A DNA stretch of 64,000 nucleotides from an uncultured Rikenellaceae bacterium (GTDB taxonomy: Bacteria > Bacteroidota > Bacteroidia > Bacteroidales > VadinHA17), in the NCBI GenBank assembly GCA_964466705.1, contig CAYXSM010000009.1, positions 44,308-108,307 on the forward strand. Direction: 5' to 3'. The first letter of the stretch is position 1, and the number at the start of each line of letters is the position of its first letter. Made by a program: the position numbers and the translations under genes. Below are positions 20,655 to 61,820 of this stretch, piece after piece. Under the pieces are notes generated by a model that did no database searches, had not been told where the DNA came from, and saw nothing but the letters and a program-made list of their open reading frames with translations.

Positions 20655-21905
20655 ATGTTAAGAAGGAATTTTCTGCGAACTTCTTCTGCAGGCATCCTGG
20701 GGCTTATGAGCCATGATATCAGGAATGTACTGGAGAACCCTGACCTGCCGGCAATACCGAAGCTGACAATAACGGGAATTGAAACGGTCCGCTTCAGGAA
20801 TGCTAACTGGATGTGGCTCAGATTGCATACCAGTGAAGGTATTACCGGAACGGGAGAGACTTATCCCTTCAACGAAGCAAATTCCGGGGTTATTAAGGAC
20901 CTCGAATGGCACAGCTGGGCAGGCAGATTGCTTGGATCAGATCCCCTTGAAATTGAACAGATCTGGGAAAGGGTATTCCGGCAAAATGCATTCCACGGAA
21001 CAGGCGGTGCCGAAATGAGGGCTCTGTCGGCTGTTAATATCGCACAGTGGGACATCCTGGGGCAGGTTGCCAATATGCCTTTATACCAGTTACTCGGCGG
21101 TTCATACAATAAGGAAATCAGAGTATACAACACGTACACTAACTCTCGTGCCATTAACGGATGGTCCCTGGAAAATGATATGGAAACAATTGCAGGATTC
21201 CTTGTTGGTCAGGGTATCAAAGCAATAAAGATCTGTCCGTTTGATAAAGTGGCTGCCAGGAATAATGGTGAATATATAAGCAGAATTGATATTGAGGAAA
21301 GTCTTGACTGGATCCGCAGGATAAGGGATTCTGTCGGGTTTGAGCTGGAAATTGGTTGTGAATTCCACAGCATGTGGAACCTTCCGTCGGCTGTACGTAT
21401 AGCAAGAGCTCTGGAGCCATATGAAATACTTTTTCTTGAAGACATGCTTTTACAGGATAATATCCAGGCCTACGTCAGTCTTAATAATGAATCACCGATC
21501 CCTCTCGTTATAAGTGAACGGCTGGCTACACGCTTCGGATTCAGGGAGATGTTTGAAGCTAAAGCAGGTTCTATAGTCATGTATGATCTTACATGGTGCG
21601 GTGGAATCAGCGAAGGAAAGAAAATTTCAGACCTGGCGAATACTTACTATATACCCACCATGATGCATACTGCAGGAGGACCTGTCCTGTGGTACGCATC
21701 AGCACATCTGGCTGCAGCCATAACCAATCTCTTCTACGTGGAAAGTGTTTTCCCGACATGGCACGACCGCGACTTCCTTTACTTCGAAAATCCTCCCCAG
21801 GTACGGGGAGGCCTGATAAAACCACCATGCCTGCCAGGTCTTGGCCTTCAGTTCCGGAAAGAAGTGTTCGATCACAAAAATAGCATTGTTGAGAGAATCG
21901 CATGA
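20655..21905 (+). CDS. Enolase-superfamily (mandelate racemase/muconate lactonizing, acid-sugar dehydratase type) protein with Tat signal
   Basis: 416 aa. The N-terminus MLRRNFLRTSSAGILGLMS has a twin-arginine motif. Capping-domain GITGTGETYP and barrel motifs EIGCEFHSMWN, ILFLEDML and VISERLA are present. Confidence 0.85.
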   Translation: MLRRNFLRTSSAGILGLMSHDIRNVLENPDLPAIPKLTITGIETVRFRNANWMWLRLHTSEGITGTGETYPFNEANSGVIKDLEWHSWAGRLLGSDPLEIEQIWERVFRQNAFHGTGGAEMRALSAVNIAQWDILGQVANMPLYQLLGGSYNKEIRVYNTYTNSRAINGWSLENDMETIAGFLVGQGIKAIKICPFDKVAARNNGEYISRIDIEESLDWIRRIRDSVGFELEIGCEFHSMWNLPSAVRIARALEPYEILFLEDMLLQDNIQAYVSLNNESPIPLVISERLATRFGFREMFEAKAGSIVMYDLTWCGGISEGKKISDLANTYYIPTMMHTAGGPVLWYASAHLAAAITNLFYVESVFPTWHDRDFLYFENPPQVRGGLIKPPCLPGLGLQFRKEVFDHKNSIVERIA

Positions 21906-21946: not shown

Positions 21947-23080
21947 CTAGCCTTCAGCAATCACCCGTTCTACGAGTGCTTTCATATAACCTATGGAAAA
22001 GGCAGTTCCCGTATATGGCCCGTAAACCATCGAAGGAATGTGATCGGCAATTATCACCCCGTCAAAATCAACATCTTTCAGAGCTTTGAGTATTTTGTAC
22101 ATATCGGCATATCCGTCATCAAGGAATGTCTCGACAAAATGAGGAAGAGGCTGGTTGACATTACGGAAATGGACCTTGAAGATCTTTTTTCTTTCACCGA
22201 AATACCTGATGGTCTCAATGACATCTTCGCCCATAAGATCTCCGCCTTCAAGCCAGCATCCTACGCACAGGCAAATTCCCACGTTTGGACTGTCAGCAAT
22301 TTCAAGAGCACGTTTGTATCCATCGAAACTGCTGAATATACACCTTGGTATTCCTCCCAGTTCAGGAACAGGGGGGTCATCGGGATGAATGCCGATTTTA
22401 ACATTTTCCTCCTCTGCCACGGGTGCAGCCTGACTGATGAAATATTTATAATTTTCCCACAGTTCATCATCAGTATATTTACGTCCGTGAGTTAGCGATC
22501 CTTCGTAGGTTTTTCCGTGCCAGTAACCGGCTACTGCACTGTCAAGGTTGAATGCCCGGGCTGAAGCTCCACCGCGTGTCGTTTCTCTTTCCGTGCTCCA
22601 GATGCCGTTAGCCATATGGGCATATGTTGTGTATGGTATACCTGCTTTTCCCAGATTACGTAAATGAGTTATATACTCTTTAATTTTGGAATCCCTTCCG
22701 GGCAGGTTCAGGGTAATGGCATCCTGGTTATGGACATCCCAGTTACCGAAACCGAAAACTTTTATTCCGGCTTCTTCAAACAGCAGACGCCTGCTGTTGT
22801 AATATTCGAAACCTGCCTTTCGGGCATCTGTCCACAGCACAACATGGTCAATACCCATCTGATGCATAAACCTGATATCATCTTCGGAAGGTTCAGGGGA
22901 AGCCTGCAGTGCAATTTTGATACAGGGCTCCTGAGGAGGATATTCTGAAGGATCTTTAATATAGCTTTCAACGGTTTCTTCAGAAGCGGATACATTGTTC
23001 CTGCATGAACTCAGCCCGGCAATCGAAAATGCTGCCAGGGCAGAGCCTTTTTTTATGAACTCTCTTCGGTTATCTTTCAT
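21947..23080 (-). CDS. Mannonate dehydratase (UxuA) family protein with Tat signal and lipobox
   Basis: The track ORF starts at 23161 and overlaps the upstream gene by 50 nt. Met at 23080 gives MKDNRREFIKKGSALAAFSIAGLSSC. IGIHPDDPP, FKVHFRNV and VIIADHIP are UxuA-type motifs as I recall them. Confidence 0.72.
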   Translation of the reverse strand: MKDNRREFIKKGSALAAFSIAGLSSCRNNVSASEETVESYIKDPSEYPPQEPCIKIALQASPEPSEDDIRFMHQMGIDHVVLWTDARKAGFEYYNSRRLLFEEAGIKVFGFGNWDVHNQDAITLNLPGRDSKIKEYITHLRNLGKAGIPYTTYAHMANGIWSTERETTRGGASARAFNLDSAVAGYWHGKTYEGSLTHGRKYTDDELWENYKYFISQAAPVAEEENVKIGIHPDDPPVPELGGIPRCIFSSFDGYKRALEIADSPNVGICLCVGCWLEGGDLMGEDVIETIRYFGERKKIFKVHFRNVNQPLPHFVETFLDDGYADMYKILKALKDVDFDGVIIADHIPSMVYGPYTGTAFSIGYMKALVERVIAEG

Positions 23081-23111
23081 ATTGTAAATTTTCGATGTTT
23101 GATTATTCTGA

Positions 23112-24893
23112 TTATTTTCCTGCCTTTCTGCCGGAAGATCCTTTGTAAGCTGACTTTTCATTCTTTACCAGAGTGTCAGGAAAAGAAACGAGTTCAATGC
23201 CTTTGTTGTATCCCAGGTTTCTAGAGTATTGCTTCTTCTCCGGGTCATTCCAGTGTTCATGTACACCAAGACTGGGGATTGGCTTACCGCTGTTATCAGG
23301 GTCATAGATAATTCCCTCCGGCCAGTTTGATTTATCGGCTGCCTGGTGAAGATAGTCATCCACTCCGTTAATGTTGGGTCTGTCTTCTGCTGCGTTATTG
23401 GCAGGATCATGTTTGTTGATCCCGTTCCATTCGGTCCGGAGAAAGTCAAAACATACCGATTCAAGAGCAACCTGATCCTGTGAGACAAAAATTGAGTTGC
23501 ACCAATCATCGTTGAAAGGTGGCATAAAGTACTTAACCGGTGCCCTGGTTTCGCTTGCACCCCCCCCAAAAAGACCGTCAACCAGGTATAATACCGTATT
23601 TTGACCAAGGTATTTGCTTCCCATCAGATCCACAAGGTTTCTGTATTTCCTGTAGCCGGTGTTTGTAGGACGTCCTCCAATGGGTATCACAAGGGCATTG
23701 TGCAGATGGATTGCATTCTCTCTGGCATGAGATCCGAAATGATTTTTTGCCGTCAGCGAGATGCCTGCCGACATATGAGGTTTGAGATTCGCAACATTTA
23801 TCAGGTAGTCGGCATTCTCTATCACGTCATAAAGCTTATCGGTCTGGGCTTTGTCGGAATAAAAGATAAGGTCTTTACTGGTAGGATAAATGAGCGTTCT
23901 TCCGTTTTCTGATGAGAATTTGCCAGTATAAACAACATCAGGAAATTCTGAAAACCATACATCATAATTATGACCACAGATATCAGTCATCGGATCACCG
24001 ACGACGATGTCAGCCTGATTGACTCCAACCTCATATACCAGTTCTTTCAAAAGCTCCAGGACAACATACGGCCCTGCCTCGGTTGCTCCGAAAACGGGTT
24101 TTCTCCGCTCTTCGCCCGGTTTCAGGGTTGTGGGATAATAGAATCCTTTTTCTTTTTCCTCAACATTCAGTCCAAGTCTTGATGTACCCTGGTTAATTTT
24201 GATTAGTATCTTTTCCCCTTTTCTGTAGCCTGCCTTTATGTTATGCTTTTTATGGTTGTGATACCGGAACAGGACATCCCATGAACGGGCAATTGTTTTT
24301 TCCCCGGTAAGTCCCGTAAGGGAGGATCTTATCATATCCCTTACCACTTCCCTGTTTGTATTCTCCGGCTTAAAGAACCAGTCCTGTGTATCGAAACAGG
24401 TTACACAGTTTTCATTTGTAGCTTCCGGATTCCACACCCAGACGACACGACCCGGATGGACTCCCTGTTCCACACCAGAGGGCTGGTTCGGGCCATCATC
24501 GGGGCCTGTTGCCGGAAGAGCTGCAGCATAAACGTCTTTAGCGCTGTTGGTCATGGAAATAATCAGTCCGGCAAGTGCGGCAACAATAAATAAAGCTGCG
24601 GCCACATAACGCGAACGGATAAGATTTTGTTTCGCTTTTCGGAAAGCCAGCAGGCTTCCTCCAAGCGAGAGAAGGTAGACAACAAAGCCTGACATGAGCG
24701 GTGCTGCCACTTTCATGCAGGGGTATGTGGCCCTGGATGGTTTTGGTATAACCCGGATTAAAAACCATATAGTAGAGATATCTCCGGTAAGTGCAAAAAG
24801 AAGCCGGGGAGGGATGTTGCGGCCAGGCATCCAGGCATTAATTTCCCCGATCTTTCTCTTAAGCTTTAATGCATCAAATCTGTATTTTCTCAT
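23112..24893 (-). CDS. Membrane-anchored DUF362 domain protein (paralog 1)
   Basis: 593 aa. Three predicted N-terminal TM helices include the conserved IWFLIRVIPKPSRATYPCMKVAAPLMSGFV. DUF362-like ILIKINQGT and LINVANLKPHMSAGISLTAKNHFGS are present. About 60% identical by eye to 27619..29358. Confidence 0.65.
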   Translation of the reverse strand: MRKYRFDALKLKRKIGEINAWMPGRNIPPRLLFALTGDISTIWFLIRVIPKPSRATYPCMKVAAPLMSGFVVYLLSLGGSLLAFRKAKQNLIRSRYVAAALFIVAALAGLIISMTNSAKDVYAAALPATGPDDGPNQPSGVEQGVHPGRVVWVWNPEATNENCVTCFDTQDWFFKPENTNREVVRDMIRSSLTGLTGEKTIARSWDVLFRYHNHKKHNIKAGYRKGEKILIKINQGTSRLGLNVEEKEKGFYYPTTLKPGEERRKPVFGATEAGPYVVLELLKELVYEVGVNQADIVVGDPMTDICGHNYDVWFSEFPDVVYTGKFSSENGRTLIYPTSKDLIFYSDKAQTDKLYDVIENADYLINVANLKPHMSAGISLTAKNHFGSHARENAIHLHNALVIPIGGRPTNTGYRKYRNLVDLMGSKYLGQNTVLYLVDGLFGGGASETRAPVKYFMPPFNDDWCNSIFVSQDQVALESVCFDFLRTEWNGINKHDPANNAAEDRPNINGVDDYLHQAADKSNWPEGIIYDPDNSGKPIPSLGVHEHWNDPEKKQYSRNLGYNKGIELVSFPDTLVKNEKSAYKGSSGRKAGK

Positions 24894-25018
24894 TATACTC
24901 CAGGCTGGTTAAAAATAATATATTATGATATTTCAGTTGTTTTTTATAATTATCTGAGTATTTAATAATTAATGTTCTTCATCTGCTCTCTTTACATTCA
25001 AAAGTACTTATTTTTAAT

Positions 25019-25047
25019 AAAAAAAGGGGCTTGTATCCACCCCTTTT
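25019..25047 (-). terminator. Intrinsic terminator candidate between the enolase paralog and DUF362 paralog 1
   Basis: The minus strand reads AAAAGGGG-tggatacaag-CCCC followed by TTTTTTATT, about 25 nt after the stop at 25069. Confidence 0.45.
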
Positions 25048-25068
25048 CTTATAAAAAATATCATGTGA

Positions 25069-26544
25069 TCAACTCCACAACCGGTCATGGGAACGCTTCT
25101 GATCCCATTCAGGTGTGGGTTCAAACCATGTCGAGCCTTTGCGCATATATTTTTTGCACACTTCCTCGTTCAGCTCAATGCCGAGTCCGGGAGAGTCAAG
25201 CGGTACATTGGCAAATCCTTTCTCTATCATGGGTTTGGAGCCGGTCATTCTGACAAGGTCGTTATAATAAGGTGTATCCACGTTATGATGCTCCAGTGAA
25301 AGGAAGTTTTGAGTTGCGGCTGCGCAGTGCACATTTGCCATCAGGCATACCGGCGATCCTGCCATATGCATGGCCATGGCAATTCCGTGCTCTTCGGCAT
25401 AATCACCGATCCTTTTGGTCTCCAGAAGACCTCCTGAGCTTCCAAGATCGGGATGAATAATGTCTATTGCCTGGGCATCAATGAGAGGTTTGAAACCATC
25501 CTTGAGCAGATAGATATCCTCTCCTGTCAATACAGGTGTTTCGAGAGCTTCGGTAAGGATCTTGTTCTTGTGTACATCGAACCATGGCACCATATCTTCA
25601 AGCCATGCCAGACGGTATTTTTCCATAGCCCGCCCGAATCGTATTGCATTGTTCACATCAAAGTGTCCGAAATGGTCGGCACAGAGGGGCATTTCATACC
25701 CGACCCCGTCTCTCACCTTTTCAACGTATTCTGCAAGTCCTGCGAGTCCTTTGTCCGTTATCTGTACCTGTGTGAAAGGATGAAGGGTGTTGCCGTAACC
25801 CATATAGGTTCTCAGATCGTACTGTCCTGTGGCTCCGTCCCAGAATTTTGAATTTACTAGTGTGTCCGGCTGCTTTGCAACGACATGTATTCCAAGATCC
25901 ATCTTTAGCCAGGTAAATCCCTGTTCTTCAACTCTTTTCTTCATCACTTCTGCAAATCTGACCGGATCGTCGGCACCCGGAGTGTCAGCATAGAGCCGCA
26001 CTTTGTCGCGGTACCTTCCTCCAAGAAGCTGCCAGGCCGGAACATTGTAAGCCTTTCCTGTCAGATCCCACAGAGCCATTTCAACAGCACAAACGCCCCC
26101 TCCCTGGCGGCCATGGTAGCCAAATTGCCTTATTATTTTAAAAATCATTTCAACATTGCAGGGATTAAGGCCCAGTATTCTGCTTTTAAGGAAAAGAGCA
26201 TAACGCACATCGGCACCGTCTCTTACTTCGCCAAGTCCGTAAATTCCCTGGTTGGTGTCAATCCTAATGATATGCTTGTTCATGATAGTGGCGTAGCGCA
26301 TATCGGTGATCTTAAGATCAGAAGGATTTGATGCCCTGTTGACCTGAGATGTGGTATGTGCTATAGTGTCTTCCAATGACAGGTGCATAAGACCGCCCAG
26401 GGCAATACCCCCGAAAGCGGCTTTTTTCAGGAAGCTCCGGCGATCATTGTCCTGATGAGGCGAATCAATGATCAGGGATTTATTTACTTCTTCCTTTTCC
26501 CTGGTCTTTTCTTTTTCAATAATCTTCTTCAATGATTCTTTCAT
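25069..26544 (-). CDS. Enolase-superfamily acid-sugar dehydratase-like protein with Tat signal
   Basis: 491 aa. A long n-region precedes DRRSFLKKAAFGGIALGG. GIYGLGEV, CADHFGHFD, AWLEDMVPW and LTGEDIY match D/E/E metal-ligand contexts of the MR subgroup. Confidence 0.85.
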   Translation of the reverse strand: MKESLKKIIEKEKTREKEEVNKSLIIDSPHQDNDRRSFLKKAAFGGIALGGLMHLSLEDTIAHTTSQVNRASNPSDLKITDMRYATIMNKHIIRIDTNQGIYGLGEVRDGADVRYALFLKSRILGLNPCNVEMIFKIIRQFGYHGRQGGGVCAVEMALWDLTGKAYNVPAWQLLGGRYRDKVRLYADTPGADDPVRFAEVMKKRVEEQGFTWLKMDLGIHVVAKQPDTLVNSKFWDGATGQYDLRTYMGYGNTLHPFTQVQITDKGLAGLAEYVEKVRDGVGYEMPLCADHFGHFDVNNAIRFGRAMEKYRLAWLEDMVPWFDVHKNKILTEALETPVLTGEDIYLLKDGFKPLIDAQAIDIIHPDLGSSGGLLETKRIGDYAEEHGIAMAMHMAGSPVCLMANVHCAAATQNFLSLEHHNVDTPYYNDLVRMTGSKPMIEKGFANVPLDSPGLGIELNEEVCKKYMRKGSTWFEPTPEWDQKRSHDRLWS

Positions 26545-26586
26545 AATGTATTTATTAATGATTTAATTGGATTAACATTTTTCTGA

Positions 26587-27519
26587 TTACCAGTTACGAT
26601 CCTTGAAATAATTATCCAGCTCCTCCTGTGTCATGGGCAGTTTGCCGGGGTAATTTTTCAGCCAGCTGAGAAAATCATTTCTGATTTCTTCTGACCAGCG
26701 GGTATCTATCTGTCCGGGTTTATACCTGCCTTCACGCAGTCTCTGATGTCCGAATTCATCACGCAGGGCTGTTACTTCGCCGTTGATGACAAGATCCTTA
26801 ACAAGGTATGCGGGAATGAAAATCACTCCGTATTTTTTTGCGAGCACCACATCACCAGGAAAAACGGTTGCATTGCCGATTCTTACCGGGGCATTAATCG
26901 AAGTCAGCATCATATTGGTAATCCACGATGGGTCCGAACCCAGAAACCAGGCATTGAACCCTTCTATTTCCGCCAGACCTTCCTCGTCCCTTATTGAACC
27001 ATAGAACACAACCCCTCTTTTGGATTTACTGTAGATTGAGTTACCCAGATTATCTCCGATAAGAGTTCCATCCACTATTTTCCCGTATCCATCAGCAACA
27101 TATACATCACCATCTACAAGAATATCTATGGGCCATGAGTTGGTCCCTCCCTCCTGGGTCCGGTCCTCCTGTTTTCCCAATTCACGTATGTATTTGTCAT
27201 AATCAGGGCGTGAGGGCATGTATTGGGCTGTGACAACTCTCCCTGTCATTGTTTCTTCAGGATGAAGGATCTCCCATTTCCTCTCGAACTGATTATGATA
27301 GCCTCTGGCACGAAGGAAGGCATAAGCTTCCTCCACAGAGATATTCTTCAGTCTTTCAAGATATGAATCTGAAACTTTGGGTCTCCCGTCAGCAAAGCGT
27401 TCACCGGTCCATTCCGAAGTAATGGATTTAATGTATCCGGGGGTGGAATTTATTCGCTGAGGCAGGGCAATGGCGCTTATTCCAAACAAACTGGCAAGCA
27501 GAAATAATCTTCTGTACAT
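26587..27519 (-). CDS. RraA-family (HMG/CHA aldolase-like) protein with N-terminal signal peptide
   Basis: 310 aa. Signal MYRRLFLLASLFGISAIALPQ. GDVYVADGYGKIVDGTLIGDNLG, RGVVFYGSIRD and PVRIGNATVFPGDVVLAKKYGVIFIP resemble the RraA/DlpA fold. Confidence 0.72.
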   Translation of the reverse strand: MYRRLFLLASLFGISAIALPQRINSTPGYIKSITSEWTGERFADGRPKVSDSYLERLKNISVEEAYAFLRARGYHNQFERKWEILHPEETMTGRVVTAQYMPSRPDYDKYIRELGKQEDRTQEGGTNSWPIDILVDGDVYVADGYGKIVDGTLIGDNLGNSIYSKSKRGVVFYGSIRDEEGLAEIEGFNAWFLGSDPSWITNMMLTSINAPVRIGNATVFPGDVVLAKKYGVIFIPAYLVKDLVINGEVTALRDEFGHQRLREGRYKPGQIDTRWSEEIRNDFLSWLKNYPGKLPMTQEELDNYFKDRNW

Positions 27520-27618
27520 AATGTATGGGTTTAGATTTTAAGTAAGCTGATCGTAAGTTAAGTCTCGGTTACAAAAATGGCTCAAAGTTACCTTTATGGT
27601 ACGTTGGGATTCTTTAGA

Positions 27619-29358
27619 TTACCTCCTGGATATTGCCAGAGTATCAGGCACAGAGACCAGCTCTATGCCATATGGGCGCCCCAGATTACGGGAATACTGC
27701 TTCTGCACTGCATTATTCCAGTGCTCATGAATGCCCAGGCTCGGAAGGGGCCTGCCGCTGCCGTCAGGATCATATACAATACCCTCAGGCCAGCTGGCCG
27801 GAACAGCAGCCTGATGAAGATAATCGTCGACTCCGTTTACATTTGGAATGTCCTCATAAGAATTGTTGGCCGGATTATGTGAGTATGTTCCGTTCCATTC
27901 TGCCCTCAGGAAATCATAACATACCGATTCAAGTGCAACCTGGTCCTGCGATACAAATATCGAATTGCACCAGTCGTTGTTAAAAGGCTGCATAAAATAT
28001 TTAACCGGGACTTTTGTCTCATTTGACCCTCCCCCGAACAATCCGTCAACGACAAAAAGCAGCGTATTTCTGCCAAGATAACGGCTTCCCATTATGTCTA
28101 CCATTACCCGGTATTTACCGTATCCGTTGTTGGTTGGTCTTCCCAGTGAGACCGGAGAAATTAAAGAAGCATGAAGATGAACAGCAGATTGTCTTCCATG
28201 TGATCCGAAATGATTTTTTGCGGTCAGTGAGATTCCGGCTCTTCCGTGAGGTTTCAGATTTGCCACATTGATAAGGTAATCAGCATCCTCAAAGACATCA
28301 TATAGCCTGTCTCTCAGCTTTCCGTCAGAGTAAATGACAAGTTCATTTTCTGACGGCTTTGTAAGCGTCCGGCCAAACTTGTCAGACGATCTGTCAACAT
28401 ACACCACATCAGGGAATTCCCTGGCCCACACTTCATGATTATGTCCGAATATGTGGCTCATAGGGTCACCAATGGCAATATTCTTCTGATCTACCCCGGC
28501 TTTGTTGACAAGCTGTCTCAGGATTTCAAGGACCACGTTGGGATATGTCTCGCATGTTCCCGTCAGGCCATTTCTGGCATGTTCACTGTCAGTTACTTCT
28601 GCAGGAATGTAGAAGCCATTTTCTATCTCTCTTTTTCTCAGCTTTGCATTGGCAGTTCCCTGGTTTATCTTGATAAAGATCTTTTCTCCTTTTTTATATC
28701 CTCTTTTTTTATTGTATTTCTGATAATTAAACGACCGGAAAAGAGCATCCCATGATCTCTCGAGGGTTGATTTGCCTGTGAGCTTCAATATTGCATCTTC
28801 CATCATTTTGCTCACGACGTCCTGATCTGTGTTGCCGGGTTTGTGTAAATCAAAACTGTTAATGCAATTTTCATTGGTAGCTTCCGGGTTCCAGACCCAT
28901 ACAACACGGCCCGCATTGATGCCGGCAGGTTCTCCCATTGGCTGGTTAGGCCCGTCCGAAGGTCCCGTTAAAATGTTTCCTTCAGTTATATCGTTACCGG
29001 ATGTAGCCGGATCAACTGTGTTGCTGAAGCTGAATAATGCGGTAAACAACAGGAACAGGGTTGATATAAACCTGACCCTGTGAATTCCATTACGTGTTTT
29101 TCTGAAGAGAAGTGTAAGCCCTCCCACAGACAGAATATATATCACGAAGCCTGACATCAGTGGCGCTGCCACACGCATACAGGGATATGCAGCCCTGGAA
29201 GGTTTTGGCATTACTCTGATGATGAACCAGATTGTTGATACGATACCAGGAACCAGGAAAATCAGAAGGGGAGGGATTTTAAAATATTTCATCTTCTCCC
29301 TGATTCTGCCCGGCCATCCTTTTAATTTAGAAATGCCAAATCTCTGAAATTCAGCCAT
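27619..29358 (-). CDS. Membrane-anchored DUF362 domain protein (paralog 2)
   Basis: 579 aa. It shares IWFIIRVMPKPSRAAYPCMRVAAPLMSGFV, GRVVWVWNPEATNENC, LINVANLKPHGRAGISLTAKNHFGSH and NDWCNSIFVSQDQVALESVCYDFLR with paralog 1. Confidence 0.65.
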   Translation of the reverse strand: MAEFQRFGISKLKGWPGRIREKMKYFKIPPLLIFLVPGIVSTIWFIIRVMPKPSRAAYPCMRVAAPLMSGFVIYILSVGGLTLLFRKTRNGIHRVRFISTLFLLFTALFSFSNTVDPATSGNDITEGNILTGPSDGPNQPMGEPAGINAGRVVWVWNPEATNENCINSFDLHKPGNTDQDVVSKMMEDAILKLTGKSTLERSWDALFRSFNYQKYNKKRGYKKGEKIFIKINQGTANAKLRKREIENGFYIPAEVTDSEHARNGLTGTCETYPNVVLEILRQLVNKAGVDQKNIAIGDPMSHIFGHNHEVWAREFPDVVYVDRSSDKFGRTLTKPSENELVIYSDGKLRDRLYDVFEDADYLINVANLKPHGRAGISLTAKNHFGSHGRQSAVHLHASLISPVSLGRPTNNGYGKYRVMVDIMGSRYLGRNTLLFVVDGLFGGGSNETKVPVKYFMQPFNNDWCNSIFVSQDQVALESVCYDFLRAEWNGTYSHNPANNSYEDIPNVNGVDDYLHQAAVPASWPEGIVYDPDGSGRPLPSLGIHEHWNNAVQKQYSRNLGRPYGIELVSVPDTLAISRR

Positions 29359-29555: not shown

Positions 29556-31202
29556 CTAATTATACCTGAATGCAACAAGGCTTCTTGGCGGGAGGTTTTT
29601 TACCGCTATGGTGTTCCCATTCCTGCCGAGCGTGGCTTTTGCATCGTAGGGCAGGGATAATATCTGTTTGGCATCTGTCACTGCCGGTAAAGTAAGGCTT
29701 ACATCAACCGGTTCATTGTTAAAATTCTCTATTACGCAACAATCGTCACCATATAGATATAGTCCGACTTTGTTGGGAGCGTCAAATTTCATTCCGAGAG
29801 GTGCCAGCAGTTTATCCCGCATGGGATTAAGTTCTTCCCGGGTAAGCTTGAGAAGGCTTTTAGGTTCTCCCGAGACCTTCAGCGATGACAGGTTCTTATG
29901 CTGCAGGAGATCCTGGTCAGTAAGCCTTATTGCAAGTGCGTCGGTAACAAGCACACTGTTCCCGTTGTTAAGCATGCGCCTCAGTATTTCTGAGAATCCC
30001 GGCTGCTTGAGCATATGCACGGTAAATACGGAAACTTTTGCCAGTTCATTTACCTGGTGTGTTGGCAGCAACGGGAGTCCCAGCATGCCTATGTAACTGT
30101 AAACATAAGGCTCTTCGTAGGGGTGGCTGGCAGGCAGTTTTGGCATATTTATTCCCTTAAGAGGTTTATTGCGCACGATCCTTGCCAGATCGAACAGATG
30201 AGGGAGTTCCTTTCTGAATGCTTCAACATTGGCTACACCGGTGCCTTCCCATCCGTCATATTTATTTGATGGCGAAATTAGATTGCTGTAACAGAACAGC
30301 ATGAGTTCCTTTGCATCTGCCAGTACCGTTTGCCGTGCCTGCTCAAGATATGTGTCGGATGTGGTTCCCAGTGCATCAAACCAACCTCCTCCGGTTTTGT
30401 CACCGCCAAGGCCGCCAAGCCAGCGCATAATGAAATATGCATTATATTGTACCGTACCTCCCGGCCTTATATCAAAATCGTAGTCGCGTGTCTCTGTGCC
30501 GACATATATGTGATCAAAATCTTCAGTTTGCCGGTCCACTACATATCCACGGTCATGAAACCTGTCATACCATAGAGGATATTTTATTATTATCCTTGCG
30601 TTGGGGTTCACGGCTTTTGAAGCCTTCAGTATTCGCTCACGGCTCACTTTGACCATCAGGTCGCTGTAATAATCGGACCATTGCTGATGACCTTTTGCAT
30701 TATAGCATTCTTCACAGGTGCAGTCGGTGAACAGAAAGTCATCTACCATTATCTCATCGAACATTGAGGCTGTGTATTCAAATATCTTCTGAAGCTCTTC
30801 CTGTGTCCCCCTATTTGTATAACAGGAAATAACATTCCACCCCCCGGCTGAAATTTTAGCAATCTGGGTGGGAGTAACACATCCTGAAACCTCAAAACCC
30901 TCACTGAGAAAACGGTCTCTGGCAGTTACAAGATCTTCACGTGTGGCATAATAGTTATTTCTGAACGATTCAATATATACTTTTGTAATGCCTGTCTTTT
31001 TGCACCAGTCAACAGCGAAATCAAGCCCGTCAGGCTTGGAAAGGTGGTCTCTTACGTTCTGGGCCGTAAATAATGTGGTTACTGTCAGGATGTCCTTGTT
31101 TTTCCTGGCAATGTCCAGGAGTGATTGTGATAAGGCTGGTACCTGAACGAGAAAAATGGCTGCAATTACCATAACAGCACCGAATGATAATTTCTTTGTC
31201 AT
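29556..31202 (-). CDS. Secreted protein of unknown function; possible glycoside-hydrolase-like TIM barrel
   Basis: 548 aa. Sec signal MTKKLSFGAVMVIAAIFLVQVPALSQ. Coding status is clear: a long ORF with no competing frame. I do not recognise a named family. VDDFLFTDCTCEECYNAKG is loosely reminiscent of GHL-type TIM barrels. Confidence 0.5.
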   Translation of the reverse strand: MTKKLSFGAVMVIAAIFLVQVPALSQSLLDIARKNKDILTVTTLFTAQNVRDHLSKPDGLDFAVDWCKKTGITKVYIESFRNNYYATREDLVTARDRFLSEGFEVSGCVTPTQIAKISAGGWNVISCYTNRGTQEELQKIFEYTASMFDEIMVDDFLFTDCTCEECYNAKGHQQWSDYYSDLMVKVSRERILKASKAVNPNARIIIKYPLWYDRFHDRGYVVDRQTEDFDHIYVGTETRDYDFDIRPGGTVQYNAYFIMRWLGGLGGDKTGGGWFDALGTTSDTYLEQARQTVLADAKELMLFCYSNLISPSNKYDGWEGTGVANVEAFRKELPHLFDLARIVRNKPLKGINMPKLPASHPYEEPYVYSYIGMLGLPLLPTHQVNELAKVSVFTVHMLKQPGFSEILRRMLNNGNSVLVTDALAIRLTDQDLLQHKNLSSLKVSGEPKSLLKLTREELNPMRDKLLAPLGMKFDAPNKVGLYLYGDDCCVIENFNNEPVDVSLTLPAVTDAKQILSLPYDAKATLGRNGNTIAVKNLPPRSLVAFRYN

Positions 31203-33760: not shown

Positions 33761-35089
33761 TCAGTTACGGGGCCTGTCATATCTGCCTGGTATAAAGGGG
33801 AATTTTTTCGCTGCGTCATCTATCATTTCGACCCCGAATCCTGGTTTATCAGGCAATTCGATATAACCGTTCACGGGAACCAGCGGTTCTTTGAACAATT
33901 CTGTCCGCAAAGGATTGAAGGTCTGGTTTGACTCAAGCATTACCAGGTTGGGAATGCCTGCCGCAAGGGTGGCGTTGGAAACTGTAAGCAGTGCCCCGTG
34001 CCAGTTATGAGGAGCACATAATTGTCCCTGCAGATGGGCCATCCGTGATACATACCATGCTTCAGTGAGACCCATGACCCCTGCATCCGGCTGGACAATA
34101 TCCATGGCGTTACGGTCGATCCATTCCTTGTAATGGAACCGGTTGTCCATCACATCTCCGCCGTAGGAGAGCTTCACGTCTCTCAGGTTGTCCTTGATTT
34201 TCCTGTAATTATCCCTTGCCTGAGGCCCGAGGCGCTCGACAGGGTCCTCAATCCAGATCAGCTTCATCTTTTCAGCCTCAGGAATAAACTGCATTGTCTG
34301 TTCCATATTCCACTGTGCGTTGCACTCCTGGATCAACCCGAAGTCAGTGCCGACAGCTTCCCTTATTTTCCACACCCCGTCAATATATTTTGTCATTGTC
34401 ATTCCACTGACTGACCAGTGGGTTCCCGGCCTGAATTTGTAAGCCCCGAATCCTTTTTGCTTAAGTTCAAGGGCCTCACTGATAAGATTATCGGGCCAGA
34501 TATCACCGTCATACATTTCTCCGGCACTGGCATATACAGGGATTTTTGTCGCAGGTTTATGATCAACCGCCAGAAATTCATAAACAGGCCTGCCTTTTAC
34601 TTTCCCTATAATGTCCCAGAGGGCAGAGTCAACTCCTGCCCACCCAACCATCGGCCCCCTTACTCTTACCCCGCATGTAAGAAACTCTATGTCAAAAGGA
34701 TTCTTTCCTTTTATGGCAGGTCGTATTACTTCTTCAAGGTATTGTTTTACGACGTCCGGGCCCCCATATTGCGTGGCTCCTCCTATACCTGTAATTCCTT
34801 TGTCGGTGAATATTTCCACCAGTATGCTGTCTGTTTTCCAGGCCTTGTACCTCTCAGGGATCCAGTCCAGGTACCATTGCTCCTCTGGTGGCAGTTCATA
34901 TGAAAGCAAAGTAACTTTAAGATCAGTTATTCTGATATTTTCCCTTTCGACACCATCCAGAGGATGATTTCTTGATTTTTCTGACAACCCTGATCCTGTA
35001 TCTGTTCCGCAGGCAGAAAGTCCGGCTGCAGTGCCCAGGCCTGCAAGTGTACCGGTACTTATGAATTTTCGTCTCGACAGTGATTTCAT
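33761..35089 (-). CDS. Enolase-superfamily protein with Tat signal and lipobox
   Basis: 442 aa. N-terminus MKSLSRRKFISTGTLAGLGTAAGLSAC. GITGIGGATQ, LIQECNAQWN and IWIEDPV are MR_MLE-type barrel motifs. Confidence 0.85.
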   Translation of the reverse strand: MKSLSRRKFISTGTLAGLGTAAGLSACGTDTGSGLSEKSRNHPLDGVERENIRITDLKVTLLSYELPPEEQWYLDWIPERYKAWKTDSILVEIFTDKGITGIGGATQYGGPDVVKQYLEEVIRPAIKGKNPFDIEFLTCGVRVRGPMVGWAGVDSALWDIIGKVKGRPVYEFLAVDHKPATKIPVYASAGEMYDGDIWPDNLISEALELKQKGFGAYKFRPGTHWSVSGMTMTKYIDGVWKIREAVGTDFGLIQECNAQWNMEQTMQFIPEAEKMKLIWIEDPVERLGPQARDNYRKIKDNLRDVKLSYGGDVMDNRFHYKEWIDRNAMDIVQPDAGVMGLTEAWYVSRMAHLQGQLCAPHNWHGALLTVSNATLAAGIPNLVMLESNQTFNPLRTELFKEPLVPVNGYIELPDKPGFGVEMIDDAAKKFPFIPGRYDRPRN

Positions 35090-60022: not shown

Positions 60023-60080
60023 CTGAAGAGGAGGTCAAAGCACTGGTTTATTGCTTGGAAAACGAAAAAATAATAATGAC

Positions 60081-61820
60081 ATGATTAAAAAGATTTTCAC
60101 ACTGATATATCTGACAATCTTGATATGCCCGTCGTTCAGCCAGGAAAGAGGTGAAGAGCCCTCACTCAGAAGGGAGGTAACTCTTTACAATCCATATATA
60201 CCTTCCATTCCCGATGTCAGGAAGAAAGGCTTTCTTCCTGATATTGTTGATACGCTGACACTCAGGCCGTCATTTAATTACCAGATAATCCCTGTTCAGT
60301 ATTCACCGGAATACAGCATAAGTCCGATCAGGCCGGCCGCACTTCTTCCCGATCCCCTTCCCAGGTTGTATAAAAGCTATGTGAAGCTCGGACTTGGCAA
60401 CAACAACACTCCTCTGGCGGAACTTAGCATCACAAATGAACGCTCAAAAAAAGGCGCACTGGGCCTCTATGCGAGACATTATTCATCAAATGGAAAGGTG
60501 CCCCTGGAAAATAAGCAGAAAGTATACGCGGGATTCATGGATAACGAAGCATCTCTTTTCGGCAAAAAATTCTTCAGGAGAAGCCTTCTGGATGCCTCGT
60601 TTGACTTTAACCAAAAGACAAGATATGCCTACGGATACGATACTGAGATCGGATTGTATGAACCTGACAGAAAAGATATCAGGCTCGACTATTATAACAT
60701 GGGAGGCGGAATCTCATATTCCTCCACTACAACTGATTCATCGGATTTTCTCTACAATTTCGGCATCTATTACAACTACTTTAACCACAAGCCAAAAAAA
60801 TCCATGAACCATATTGCTTTCAATGGATCTCTGGCAACTCTTTTCGAAGGATTTTATCTGGGATCTGACATCAGGCTCGACAGTTACACTATGTCTGATA
60901 CTCTCAACCTTGAACCCGAATATGTTTTTTCTGTCTCACCTTTTGTGAAGAAAAGTTCCGGGCAATGGAACTTTGATCTTGGGTTGGAATTACTGCTTGA
61001 TAAAAATCTGAGTACATCGCCGTCGTTCCATGTTTACCCTGATGTTAACTTCGGATTTACCGTTATACCAGAGTACATGAGCTTTTTTGCCGGACTTGGG
61101 GGCAAGCTTTTACAAAATAATCCTTTAAGCGTGATAAAGGAAAATCCATACCTTGTCCCCGATGATGCCACTCTTTTCAGGCTTCCTAATACAAGCCATA
61201 CAATCTCGATAAAAGCCGGACTGAAAGGAAATAACGGAATAAAAGGCAATTACCTGGCATCAGTCGAATACTCGAAATTTGAAAATATGCTGTTTTATGG
61301 TAATGTGGTTTTTCCGGATACTGCTTCCAGAATAGAGAGGGGCAACCATTTTTTGCCTGTTACCAGCAACGGAGACCTGCTTAATGTACACGGTGAACTC
61401 ACAGGGTCAATAACAAAGAGGCTTCGCTTTAACGCTGCCGCAAATTATTACAACTACACATTCTTGAAAAATGAAGATCCGATAATCAGTGATTTCGCAT
61501 GGAACAAACCTGAATGGGATGTAAAACTCGGATTAAATTATAATCTGAGAGACAAGATATTGGCTACGGCTGAAGTAACAGCGACGGGCCCCAGGAAGTT
61601 GCTCACCAGGAAGAGTGCTACCGGATGGCTCACTACCGCTTCACATCCGGTGGACCAGCCGGCGCATGTCAACCTCGGCATAGGAGCTGAATACAGATAT
61701 ACCAAAATTCTTTCACTGTGGGCGAAAGTGAACAACATATCCTATCAGCGATATTATGAATGGGCATTTTACCCATCGCAGATGTTCAATTTCCTGGTCG
61801 GATTTACGTACAGCCTGTGA
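60081..61820 (+). CDS. Predicted outer-membrane beta-barrel protein of unknown function
   Basis: I prefer Met at 60081 (MIKKIFTLIYLTILICPSFSQ). It has alternating amphipathic beta-strand-like segments rich in Y/G/N, and a C-terminal FLVGFTYSL resembling an OMP terminal strand. Confidence 0.55.
   Translation: MIKKIFTLIYLTILICPSFSQERGEEPSLRREVTLYNPYIPSIPDVRKKGFLPDIVDTLTLRPSFNYQIIPVQYSPEYSISPIRPAALLPDPLPRLYKSYVKLGLGNNNTPLAELSITNERSKKGALGLYARHYSSNGKVPLENKQKVYAGFMDNEASLFGKKFFRRSLLDASFDFNQKTRYAYGYDTEIGLYEPDRKDIRLDYYNMGGGISYSSTTTDSSDFLYNFGIYYNYFNHKPKKSMNHIAFNGSLATLFEGFYLGSDIRLDSYTMSDTLNLEPEYVFSVSPFVKKSSGQWNFDLGLELLLDKNLSTSPSFHVYPDVNFGFTVIPEYMSFFAGLGGKLLQNNPLSVIKENPYLVPDDATLFRLPNTSHTISIKAGLKGNNGIKGNYLASVEYSKFENMLFYGNVVFPDTASRIERGNHFLPVTSNGDLLNVHGELTGSITKRLRFNAAANYYNYTFLKNEDPIISDFAWNKPEWDVKLGLNYNLRDKILATAEVTATGPRKLLTRKSATGWLTTASHPVDQPAHVNLGIGAEYRYTKILSLWAKVNNISYQRYYEWAFYPSQMFNFLVGFTYSL

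Follow-up and report, generated by a model that had tools for sequence, protein, structure and literature searches.

Paired DUF362-type proteins with a near-invariant N-terminal hairpin and a distantly LarA-like domain in an uncultured Rikenellaceae bacterium

The stretch of DNA discussed here, hereafter the window, consists of 64,000 nucleotides of contig CAYXSM010000009.1 (assembly GCA_964466705.1) from an uncultured Rikenellaceae bacterium, and it harbors on its reverse strand a pair of genes encoding proteins of the DUF362 type. Copy A (DUF362-A, 23112..24893) specifies a pre-protein of 593 amino acids, and copy B (DUF362-B, 27619..29358) one of 579. Both are constructed from the same parts, namely three hydrophobic helices at the N-terminus, the first two of which form a hairpin around a loop with the signature PKPSRAxYPCM, and a domain of about 470 residues whose predicted fold is distantly related to that of LarA. 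The hairpin is the most conserved part of the protein rather than a generic anchor, and the whole N-terminus is probably a three-helix leader domain that is cut off.

The paralogous pair and its N-terminal hairpin

The two proteins can be aligned end to end by BLASTP with 338 identities over 579 positions (58%, E = 0), close to the value of about 60% that an earlier note on this DNA had given by eye for the same two open reading frames (ORFs). That note had also assigned both to DUF362 (PF04015), and a Pfam scan bears this out with scores of 41.0 bits (copy A) and 43.6 bits (copy B) against a gathering threshold of 24. The match spans approximately residues 271-483 in both copies and takes up about 130-210 residues of the ~470-residue domain. 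No NCBIfam model matches copy A or copy B, and no characterisation of DUF362 was encountered in the literature searched, in keeping with the description of this family as one of no established function. The motifs singled out previously are all present in both copies, including GRVVWVW, ADYLINVANLKPH..GISLTAKNHFGSH, SQDQVALESVC and LG(V/I)HEHWN, while PKPSRA(T/A)YPCM is located at residues 50-60 of copy A and 51-61 of copy B.

The codon alignment of the two copies has a nucleotide identity of 61%, and its longest aligned run with at most two mismatches extends over 32 nucleotides, where about 31 had been counted before. Orthologues of each copy, arranged in the same gene order, are found in related Bacteroidales metagenome-assembled genomes (MAGs) at 72-78% identity, compared with only 58% between copies A and B; the duplication therefore predates those lineages and is old, as had been supposed. 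Within residues 37-73, 30 of the 37 amino acids are identical between the copies, and 17 of these 30 are specified by different codons, which shows translation of the N-terminal module and purifying selection on it. A scan for sigma-70 promoters and terminators gave results at chance level with a model that is unsuited to Bacteroidota. Further duplication was observed elsewhere: one Bacteroidales MAG carries three family members in tandem (L052:8001-9974 and the neighboring ORFs), and at least four to five paralogues are distributed over separate contigs in several MAGs, for example La3_metabat2.086 and MFD04716.bin.1.396.

Both copies display the sequence WF(L/I)IRV(I/M)PKPSRAxYPCM between two hydrophobic helices, which are followed by a third. 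In copy A, a basic and presumably cytoplasmic N-tail (residues 1-30, 24804..24893, reverse strand, as are all features of the two copies) precedes the first transmembrane helix (TM1), the predicted periplasmic loop and TM2, which together make up the hairpin (residues 31-84, 24642..24803). The ultra-conserved core of the latter occupies residues 37-73 (24675..24785) and encloses the loop PKPSRATYPCM (24714..24746). Then come loop 2 (RKAKQNLIRSRY), TM3 (residues 97-114) and a stretch resembling the c-region of a signal peptide that ends in ..DVYA (residues 115-123), the three together lying at 24525..24641. The equivalent parts of copy B are the hairpin (residues 32-85, 29104..29265), its core (29137..29247), the loop PKPSRAAYPCM (29176..29208), and loop 2 (RKTRNGIHRVRF) with TM3 and the following stretch (..TVDPATSGNDIT) at 28984..29103, where the small-x-small site is weaker than that of copy A. 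The gene call stored for copy A in the database (P0001, 527 amino acids, 100% identical at 89% coverage) falls 66 residues short of the ORF and fits a start at Met67, which would remove TM1, the conserved loop and Cys59 (residues 1-67, window 24693..24893). Gene callers can thus truncate the hairpin, and automated annotation may be hiding the module.

The three hydrophobic segments of copy A reach Kyte-Doolittle peaks of 1.75-2.47 in a 19-residue window, and the AlphaFold2 (AF2) model contains three continuous helices at the N-terminus, with low confidence (~60) in the loop. Across 26 homologues, the mean number of lysines plus arginines is 8.3 in the N-tail, 2.3 in loop 1, 5.0 in loop 2 and 1.0 in the linker after TM3, which additionally holds 2.9 aspartates plus glutamates. 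This distribution favors a topology with the N-terminus inside and the domain outside, so that the extracytoplasmic placement proposed earlier finds agreement both here and in the fusion of relatives to sorting tails, carbohydrate-binding modules (CBMs) and Reg_prop propellers. No twin-arginine consensus (S/T-R-R-x-F-L-K) precedes TM3 anywhere in the family, including loop 2 of copies A and B, and export by Sec/YidC is therefore expected rather than by the twin-arginine translocation (Tat) pathway. For the same reason, a third helix inserted by Tat, as in the actinobacterial Rieske proteins, was ruled out. Two further candidates were also rejected, namely a lipoprotein signal ending at Cys59, where the lipobox [LVI][ASTVI][GAS]C is replaced by (T/A/S)-Y-P with an invariant proline at position -1, and a disulfide partner for Cys59 in the ectodomain, given that neither C163 nor C481 is invariant across the diverse alignment.

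A profile of the first 118 residues was searched against 1.84 billion representatives clustered at 50% identity, which yielded 1,031 clusters at E <= 1e-3 and 777 at E <= 1e-10. The coupling of the hairpin to one kind of domain is tight: a DUF362-type ectodomain is present in 53 of 55 hairpin carriers of at least 380 amino acids, starting at approximately residue 100-165 and nearly always at 112-139, and conversely the hairpin is present in 86 of 86 full-length ectodomain ORFs of the fetched loci. Among diverse representatives, the mean pairwise identity amounts to 0.75 in the core (residues 40-73) against 0.42 in the ectodomain, whose best 34-residue window reaches 0.64, and falls to 0.28 in loop 2, 0.20 in TM3 and 19% in the N-tail. 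In the 144 representatives with a recognisable core, W43, R47, V48 and Y57 are unchanged in all, and P50, K51, P52, R54, A55, P58 and C59 in 143. An alignment of 83 sequences has W43, R47, P50, K51, P52, R54, A55, Y57, P58, C59 and P65 invariant. The family is accordingly a large subfamily of DUF362, and all of its located genomic members belong to Bacteroidota.

The possibility raised at the outset that the module might be an already annotated anchor of a characterised family found no counterpart in the databases, as no Pfam, NCBIfam or PDB entry matches it, and single-sequence and profile searches of the PDB returned only insignificant matches to CD20 and ribosomal uL24. Stand-alone hairpin genes were considered and rejected, since the short matches look like fragments or frameshifted reads. 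The two long carriers without a DUF362 domain, P0129 (501 amino acids) and P0137 (484 amino acids), contain only Reg_prop repeats; P0129 resembles an internal deletion in which GPNWPE.. is joined directly to the C-terminal GIELVSIP, and P0137 has the loop cysteine replaced (YPS) and a Reg_prop region in place of the domain. In the literature searched, the hairpin, its link to type IX secretion system (T9SS) cargo and the LarA-register motif described below are undescribed, while the combination of DUF362 with CBM9 had already been noticed (PMC5742341).

The ectodomain and the secretion of relatives

The predicted extracytoplasmic domain of copy A covers residues 124-593 (23115..24524). A first AF2 run on an alignment of 26 close homologues reached a mean pLDDT of only 54.7 and was discarded; sequences were then realigned through a profile search from diverse representatives, and the resulting model (mbd6780d28808), built on 83 sequences down to 43% identity, has a mean pLDDT of 84.8 and a pTM of 0.76, with most of the ectodomain above 90. 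When this model was compared with the PDB by Foldseek, the top 16 matches were all nickel-pincer enzymes of the LarA family (9Q3K, 7S91, 8EZF, 2YJG, 9EIA, 6C1W, 5HUQ, 6D6Z), 15 of them with a probability of 0.69-1.00 over 240-354 columns, and everything below them had a probability of at most 0.11. A structural comparison had been recommended in the earlier note, which did not recognise the LarA family as the nearest structures. DUF362 and DUF2088 have been placed in one Pfam clan (PMC11770544; PMC7955657), the DUF362-like superfamily CL0471.

The local resemblance is concentrated in one motif of copy A, ADYLINVANLKPH373MSAGISLTAK383NH385FGSHARENAIH396LH398 (23700..23813), which stands in register with residues 162-200 of LarA; its counterpart in copy B is ADYLINVANLKPHGRAGISLTAKNHFGSHGRQSAVHLH (28171..28284). 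The sole local alignment produced by hhalign, which is not significant, pairs ADYLINVANLKPH373MSAGISLT with ADLLISEGFIESH174FFAGFSGG of LarA at 12 identities in an ungapped register, and within that register H373 aligns with H174 and K383 with the cofactor-tethering K184. The pattern A-D-x-L-I-x7-H-x2-A-G-x-S-x3-K thus coincides with LarA 162-184, followed by an invariant histidine about 15 residues on: H396 and H398 come 13 and 15 residues after K383, where the nickel ligand H200 of LarA comes 16 residues after K184. Invariant in all 83 sequences are H373, K383, N384, H385, H396, H398, D300, K232, N234, D473, E478 and D483, and further D513, Q517, E546 and W548. By its structural matches, the ectodomain is a distant relative, rather than a demonstrated member, of the LarA family. 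PDB entry 4NAR bears the name "putative uronate isomerase" and matches LarA with an E value of 4.6e-6, so that a relative of LarA has already been annotated as uronate-linked; it does not appear among the top 50 Foldseek matches of the copy A model.

Compared with canonical DUF362, to which 50 of 53 diverse relatives and both copies can be assigned, the score of the window proteins is modest (41-44 bits) and covers part of the domain only. Canonical DUF362 is described as associated or nested with 4Fe-4S motifs (PMC5742341, PMC7955657), none of which occurs in the window proteins, and the present subfamily adds the three-helix membrane module together with, in most members, T9SS and CBM tails. 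Extracellular DUF362 proteins with CBM9 and dockerin domains have been recorded in beaver and moose gut metagenomes (PMC5742341), and they are similar in that CBM9 is found in 9 of 53 relatives and a dockerin in one, P0277. That report recorded the domain combination only and mentioned neither the hairpin nor a T9SS link nor the relationship to LarA.

The tails of the relatives bear directly on the fate of the N-terminus. A Pfam scan of 53 long and diverse hairpin carriers detected the T9SS sorting domain Por_Secre_tail in 42 (79%), DUF362 in 50, CBM9 in 9, FlgD_ig in 8, Reg_prop in 7 and Big_9 in 7, and more rarely Fn3 (3), CBM6/CBM35 (2), CBM96 (1) and BACON (1), along with Ig domains; both window proteins are free of a sorting domain in the same scan. 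Effectors of the T9SS are exported through Sec in an unfolded state and fold in the periplasm before they cross the outer membrane (PMC10202324). Such cargo must leave the inner membrane, and tethering by three helices is therefore incompatible with that route. The tails and the accompanying CBM, Fn3 and Ig-like domains are those of canonical T9SS cargo, which carries a simple Sec signal peptide, unlike these relatives with their ~120-residue, three-helix N-terminus and invariant hairpin.

A plausible place for cleavage is found just past the third helix. By a simple rule scan, not a trained predictor, a small-x-Ala site follows TM3 in 72 of 83 representatives; it is present in 66 of 71 members with the tail and in 134 of 156 without it, as compared with about 34% in control segments. 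Alanine peaks 7-9 residues past the TM3 core, and 3.7 lysines plus arginines fall within the 12 residues before it. The linker appears disordered in the AF2 model, with pLDDT below 50 at residues 117-127, and the proposed cleavage site of copy A is DVYA|AALP, after Ala123. The sorting tails of relatives and this site together are the reason for regarding the N-terminus as probably a cleaved leader. The description of the proteins as membrane-anchored is consequently doubtful: it is probably wrong for the family, most of whose diverse members are T9SS cargo, and unproven for the two window copies, whose type keeps the small-x-Ala feature. As they have no T9SS tail, the window copies should end up in the periplasm.

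Some members of the family are of interest in their own right. The 640-residue P0277 has its dockerin domain (PF00404, precomputed) in place of the T9SS tail. Two adjacent T9SS-tailed genes, L080:4164-7454 (1,096 amino acids, with Big_9) and L080:8001-10721 (906 amino acids, with CBM9), adjoin two GH2 genes, a DoxX protein, a GFO oxidoreductase and a Reg_prop protein with its own T9SS tail. Tailed members in general adjoin genes for GH2, GH88, heparinase II/III-like, sulfatase and TonB-receptor proteins. Helix 3 (24552..24605 in copy A) has only 20% identity yet a fixed length and a conserved (R/K)-Y ahead of it, and such a fixed length with free sequence is odd for a signal peptide and a simple anchor alike.

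The gene neighborhood

Each copy heads an operon of exported enzymes, in the gene order already reported for the two. Directly downstream of copy A lies a gene for a UxuA-like TIM barrel of the xylose-isomerase type (21947..23080 within the ORF 21947..23161, reverse strand; Pfam UxuA, 142.9 bits), which probably starts at the second methionine (MKDNRREFIKKG.., with LSSC after a twin-arginine motif). Immediately downstream of copy B is a gene of the RraA-like aldolase/decarboxylase family (26587..27519, reverse strand; 63.3 bits) whose product has a hydrophobic N-terminus, and the last gene of the copy B operon (25069..26544, reverse strand) encodes an enolase-superfamily dehydratase with the motif RRSFLKK and the domains MR_MLE_C and MR_MLE_N, which scores below the NCBIfam cut-offs of the galactonate and mannonate dehydratase models. 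A GC hairpin with a T-run was seen by eye after its stop codon. Two further enolase-superfamily genes lie in the vicinity, together with GH88, alcohol dehydrogenases, an SBF symporter, KDG kinase and KDPG aldolase.

Four proteins of the window begin with twin-arginine sequences (RRNFLRT, RRSFLKK, RRKFIST and RREFIKK), namely the MR_MLE proteins at 20655..21905 (forward strand), 25069..26544 and 33761..35089 (both reverse strand) and the UxuA-like protein at 21947..23161 (reverse strand). In two of the four, the motif is followed by a lipobox-like LSSC or LSAC, and all four score far below the NCBIfam cut-offs for known dehydratases. Export of sugar-acid dehydratases to the periplasm by Tat is unusual. 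The 548-residue protein encoded directly upstream of copy B (29556..31202, reverse strand) has a signal-like N-terminus and matches neither Pfam nor NCBIfam; its pairing with copy B is kept in loci L043 and L046 at 75% identity, and it may be an unclassified glycan-active protein. A 589-residue ORF without a Pfam match (60051..61820, forward strand) comes after a 1,015-residue protein rich in tetratricopeptide repeats.

The same company recurs around other family members. Within two genes of 84 family genes in 79 loci, enolase-superfamily proteins were counted 31 times, TIM barrels of the UxuA/xylose-isomerase type 23 times, RraA-like proteins 16, SusC 16, SBF transporters 12, GH88 11, GFO oxidoreductases 10 and lactonases 7. 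Twin-arginine motifs are carried by 29 of 32 enolase-type, 28 of 28 TIM-barrel and 10 of 10 GFO neighbors. A recurring arrangement is exemplified by locus L013 (L013:2256-4400, L013:5205-6080 and L013:6141-7649; similar in L014, L019, L022, L026, L029 and L034), in which a family member is accompanied by a GFO/IDH/MocA oxidoreductase, a xylose-isomerase-like TIM barrel and a subunit of the molybdopterin aldehyde-oxidase type, each of the three with a twin-arginine N-terminus; it points to an oxidation of sugars in the periplasm, upstream of the sugar-acid steps. Seven-bladed lactonases adjoin other family members. The locus in the window suggests a periplasmic or surface pathway for acidic sugars.

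A proposed leader, its rivals and what they would mean

The reading we favor, held with middling confidence, is that each gene encodes the precursor of an extracytoplasmic enzyme of LarA-like fold with a cleaved three-helix leader, and that the window copies have a periplasmic role in sugar-acid metabolism. The precursor would consist of a basic tail, the near-invariant hairpin with its 12-residue outward loop PKPSRAxYPCM, a third helix and the ~470-residue catalytic domain; the third helix, fixed at about 20 residues and free in sequence, would follow a basic loop and lie 7-9 residues ahead of the small-x-Ala site. Sec/YidC would insert the three helices and thread the unfolded domain into the periplasm, where it would fold and be severed from its leader at or near that site. 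In most relatives, the released enzyme, equipped with CBMs and a T9SS sorting domain, would proceed to the cell surface, while the window copies would stay in the periplasm as partners of the Tat-exported enolase-type dehydratases, the UxuA-like TIM barrel and the RraA-like aldolase, and the products of this pathway would be imported by the adjacent SBF symporter and passed to KDG kinase and KDPG aldolase.

As for the reaction, a sugar acid or an oxidised glycan end would most likely be isomerised or epimerised, by means of the invariant His373/Lys383/His398 cluster that derives from an active site of the LarA type. Gluconate/mannonate 2-epimerases are known among the homologues of LarA, and the most economical guess is therefore an epimerase or isomerase that supplies the dehydratases next to it. 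CBM9 binds reducing ends, which hints that the secreted forms may act on the ends of glycan chains. Established in this picture are the paralogy, the DUF362 membership, the conservation of the hairpin and its coupling to the domain, the fusion partners, the gene neighborhood and the LarA-like fold, while topology, cleavage, periplasmic destination and reaction are inferred.

Conserved N-terminal elements ahead of the segment that carries a domain across the membrane are familiar from other systems, such as the extended signal peptide region (ESPR) of autotransporters, the actinobacterial Rieske proteins, in which two Sec helices are followed by a Tat-inserted third, and the signal-anchor-release (SAR) endolysins, which combine a weakly hydrophobic helix with a functional cysteine. 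None of these is known to resemble the present module in sequence or is a two-helix hairpin with a PKPSRAxYPC loop, and helix 3 here is preceded by no twin-arginine motif. Release of the leader in a holin-like or SAR-like manner may be entertained by analogy only.

Several points weigh against the cleaved-leader proposal and the LarA relationship that goes with it. The representatives used for measuring hairpin conservation were picked with the N-terminal profile, which introduces an ascertainment bias; the 83-sequence alignment was chosen with the full-length profile and has the same invariant hairpin positions. The 79 loci of the neighborhood counts are those closest to the query and phylogenetically correlated, and the counts are not independent. 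The likeness to LarA is weak, with Foldseek E values of 1e-3 to 6e-2, TM-scores of 0.24-0.40 and identities of 10-14%; such low scores indicate a distant relationship, in agreement with the common clan of DUF362 and DUF2088. The hhalign comparison with a three-sequence LarA alignment, used for register only, is not significant (probability 0.3%), and residues are equated by their spacing rather than by superposed structures. No counterpart of LarA His108 or Arg75 was identified: going by the order of strands in the AF2 secondary structure, the H108 loop would correspond to the invariant G299-D300-P301, which has no histidine, and no invariant arginine occurs at the loop equivalent to that of R75 (K232-x-N234). 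Furthermore, in 227 proteins the uncharged stretch of TM3 has a median of 20 residues with an interquartile range of 20-20, a constant length that exceeds the typical core of a Sec signal peptide (~7-15) and resembles a stable transmembrane helix. The post-TM3 site of copy B is weak, the window copies are without a T9SS tail, so that release is not forced, and the high conservation of a leader is left unexplained by cleavage.

The main alternative is the earlier view, in which the helices hold the DUF362 domain permanently on the periplasmic face of the inner membrane and the hairpin serves as a structural or oligomerisation element. The membrane-spanning length of TM3, the tail-less window copies, the three continuous helices of the AF2 model and the absence of a clear small-x-Ala site in copy B would all suit such an anchor. 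We nevertheless regard it as unlikely, if a serious contender, since proteins with the same N-terminus bear T9SS sorting domains plus CBMs in 42 of 53 diverse cases, which is incompatible with tethering (PMC10202324), the small-x-Ala feature is kept in 86% of untailed members, and a plain anchor would not be expected to outdo the catalytic domain in conservation. Of the earlier note as a whole, the paralogy, the DUF362 assignment, the old duplication and the extracytoplasmic domain have stood, and the permanent membrane anchor has not. The conservation could also reflect an active part of the hairpin in maturation, with the outward-facing Cys59, Met60 and Met67 together with the basic R47, K51, R54 and K/R61 binding a metal or an anionic cofactor at the periplasmic surface of the membrane and passing it to the histidine-rich site of the newly translocated domain before release, a substitute for the Tat pathway. 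This would account for the extreme conservation precisely at loop-facing residues, the strict coupling to a single catalytic domain whatever its destination, the many invariant His, Asp and Glu residues of the domain, the Tat export of the neighboring enzymes but not of the DUF362 copies, and the fact that Sec export precludes cytoplasmic loading. The idea is inference throughout, Pfam, NCBIfam and PDB profile searches matched none of the known metal-binding motifs, the ectodomain has no conserved partner cysteine and the AF2 loop is of low confidence, and we consider it improbable. A more specific version, in which the PKPSRAxYPC hairpin represents an unrecognised class of cis-acting leader that, beyond targeting, matures an enzyme of the LarA type at the inner membrane's outer face, for instance by delivery of a metal or a pincer-type cofactor for which cytoplasmic loading is impossible, after which the enzyme is cut loose to serve in the periplasm or be secreted by T9SS, is best called a long shot.

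Whether the domain is itself a true nickel-pincer nucleotide (NPN) enzyme was weighed alongside, namely a periplasmic or secreted epimerase of 2-hydroxy acids (aldonates), in which Lys383 would tether the cofactor and His398 would bind nickel. It is suggested by structural matches in the PDB that are confined to the LarA family, by the identical H-x9-K spacing and a histidine 15 rather than 16 residues after the lysine, all invariant, and by the position of copy A directly upstream of a mannonate-dehydratase-like gene, given the gluconate/mannonate epimerases among LarA homologues. However, LarB, LarE and LarC build NPN in the cytoplasm, where LarA itself resides and is loaded, while the window domain is predicted to be exported unfolded, so that dependence on NPN is unlikely unless the cofactor is supplied outside the cytoplasm. 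In addition, neither copy matches Lar_N/DUF2088 in Pfam or LarA in PDB sequence searches, no genes of the larB, larC or larE type occur among the scanned window ORFs of at least 200 amino acids, the hhalign result is not significant and the Arg75 and His108 equivalents were not found; we judge this reading very improbable. A periplasmic sensor or regulator of the locus that signals through the membrane module, instead of an enzyme, would find a precedent in the Reg_prop propellers of Bacteroides hybrid two-component sensors, to which a subset of the family is fused, and in the association of the family with polysaccharide-utilisation loci. The cytoplasmic tail is, however, short and the least conserved part of the protein (19% identity) and carries no output domain, most members are T9SS-secreted with CBMs, and the invariant polar residues are grouped in the manner of an active site, which makes a sensor close to implausible.

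If the cleaved-leader reading is true, a family of more than 1,000 clusters in the polysaccharide-utilisation loci of Bacteroidota, often fused to CBMs and secreted by T9SS, would rank as a strong candidate for a new family of carbohydrate-active enzymes with chemistry like that of LarA, a class of activity that has not yet been connected with glycan breakdown. Were the hairpin to act as a maturing leader as well, the family would contain the first extracytoplasmic members of the LarA/NPN group and would constitute a new carbohydrate-active family for sugar acids or oxidised glycan ends. Dehydration of sugar acids, which is usually cytoplasmic, would take place in the periplasm here by means of the Tat-exported enolase-superfamily and UxuA-like enzymes. 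Meanwhile, the three-helix leader would stand as an exception to the textbook simple Sec signal peptide of T9SS effectors and would point to an unrecognised step of export or maturation in these bacteria.

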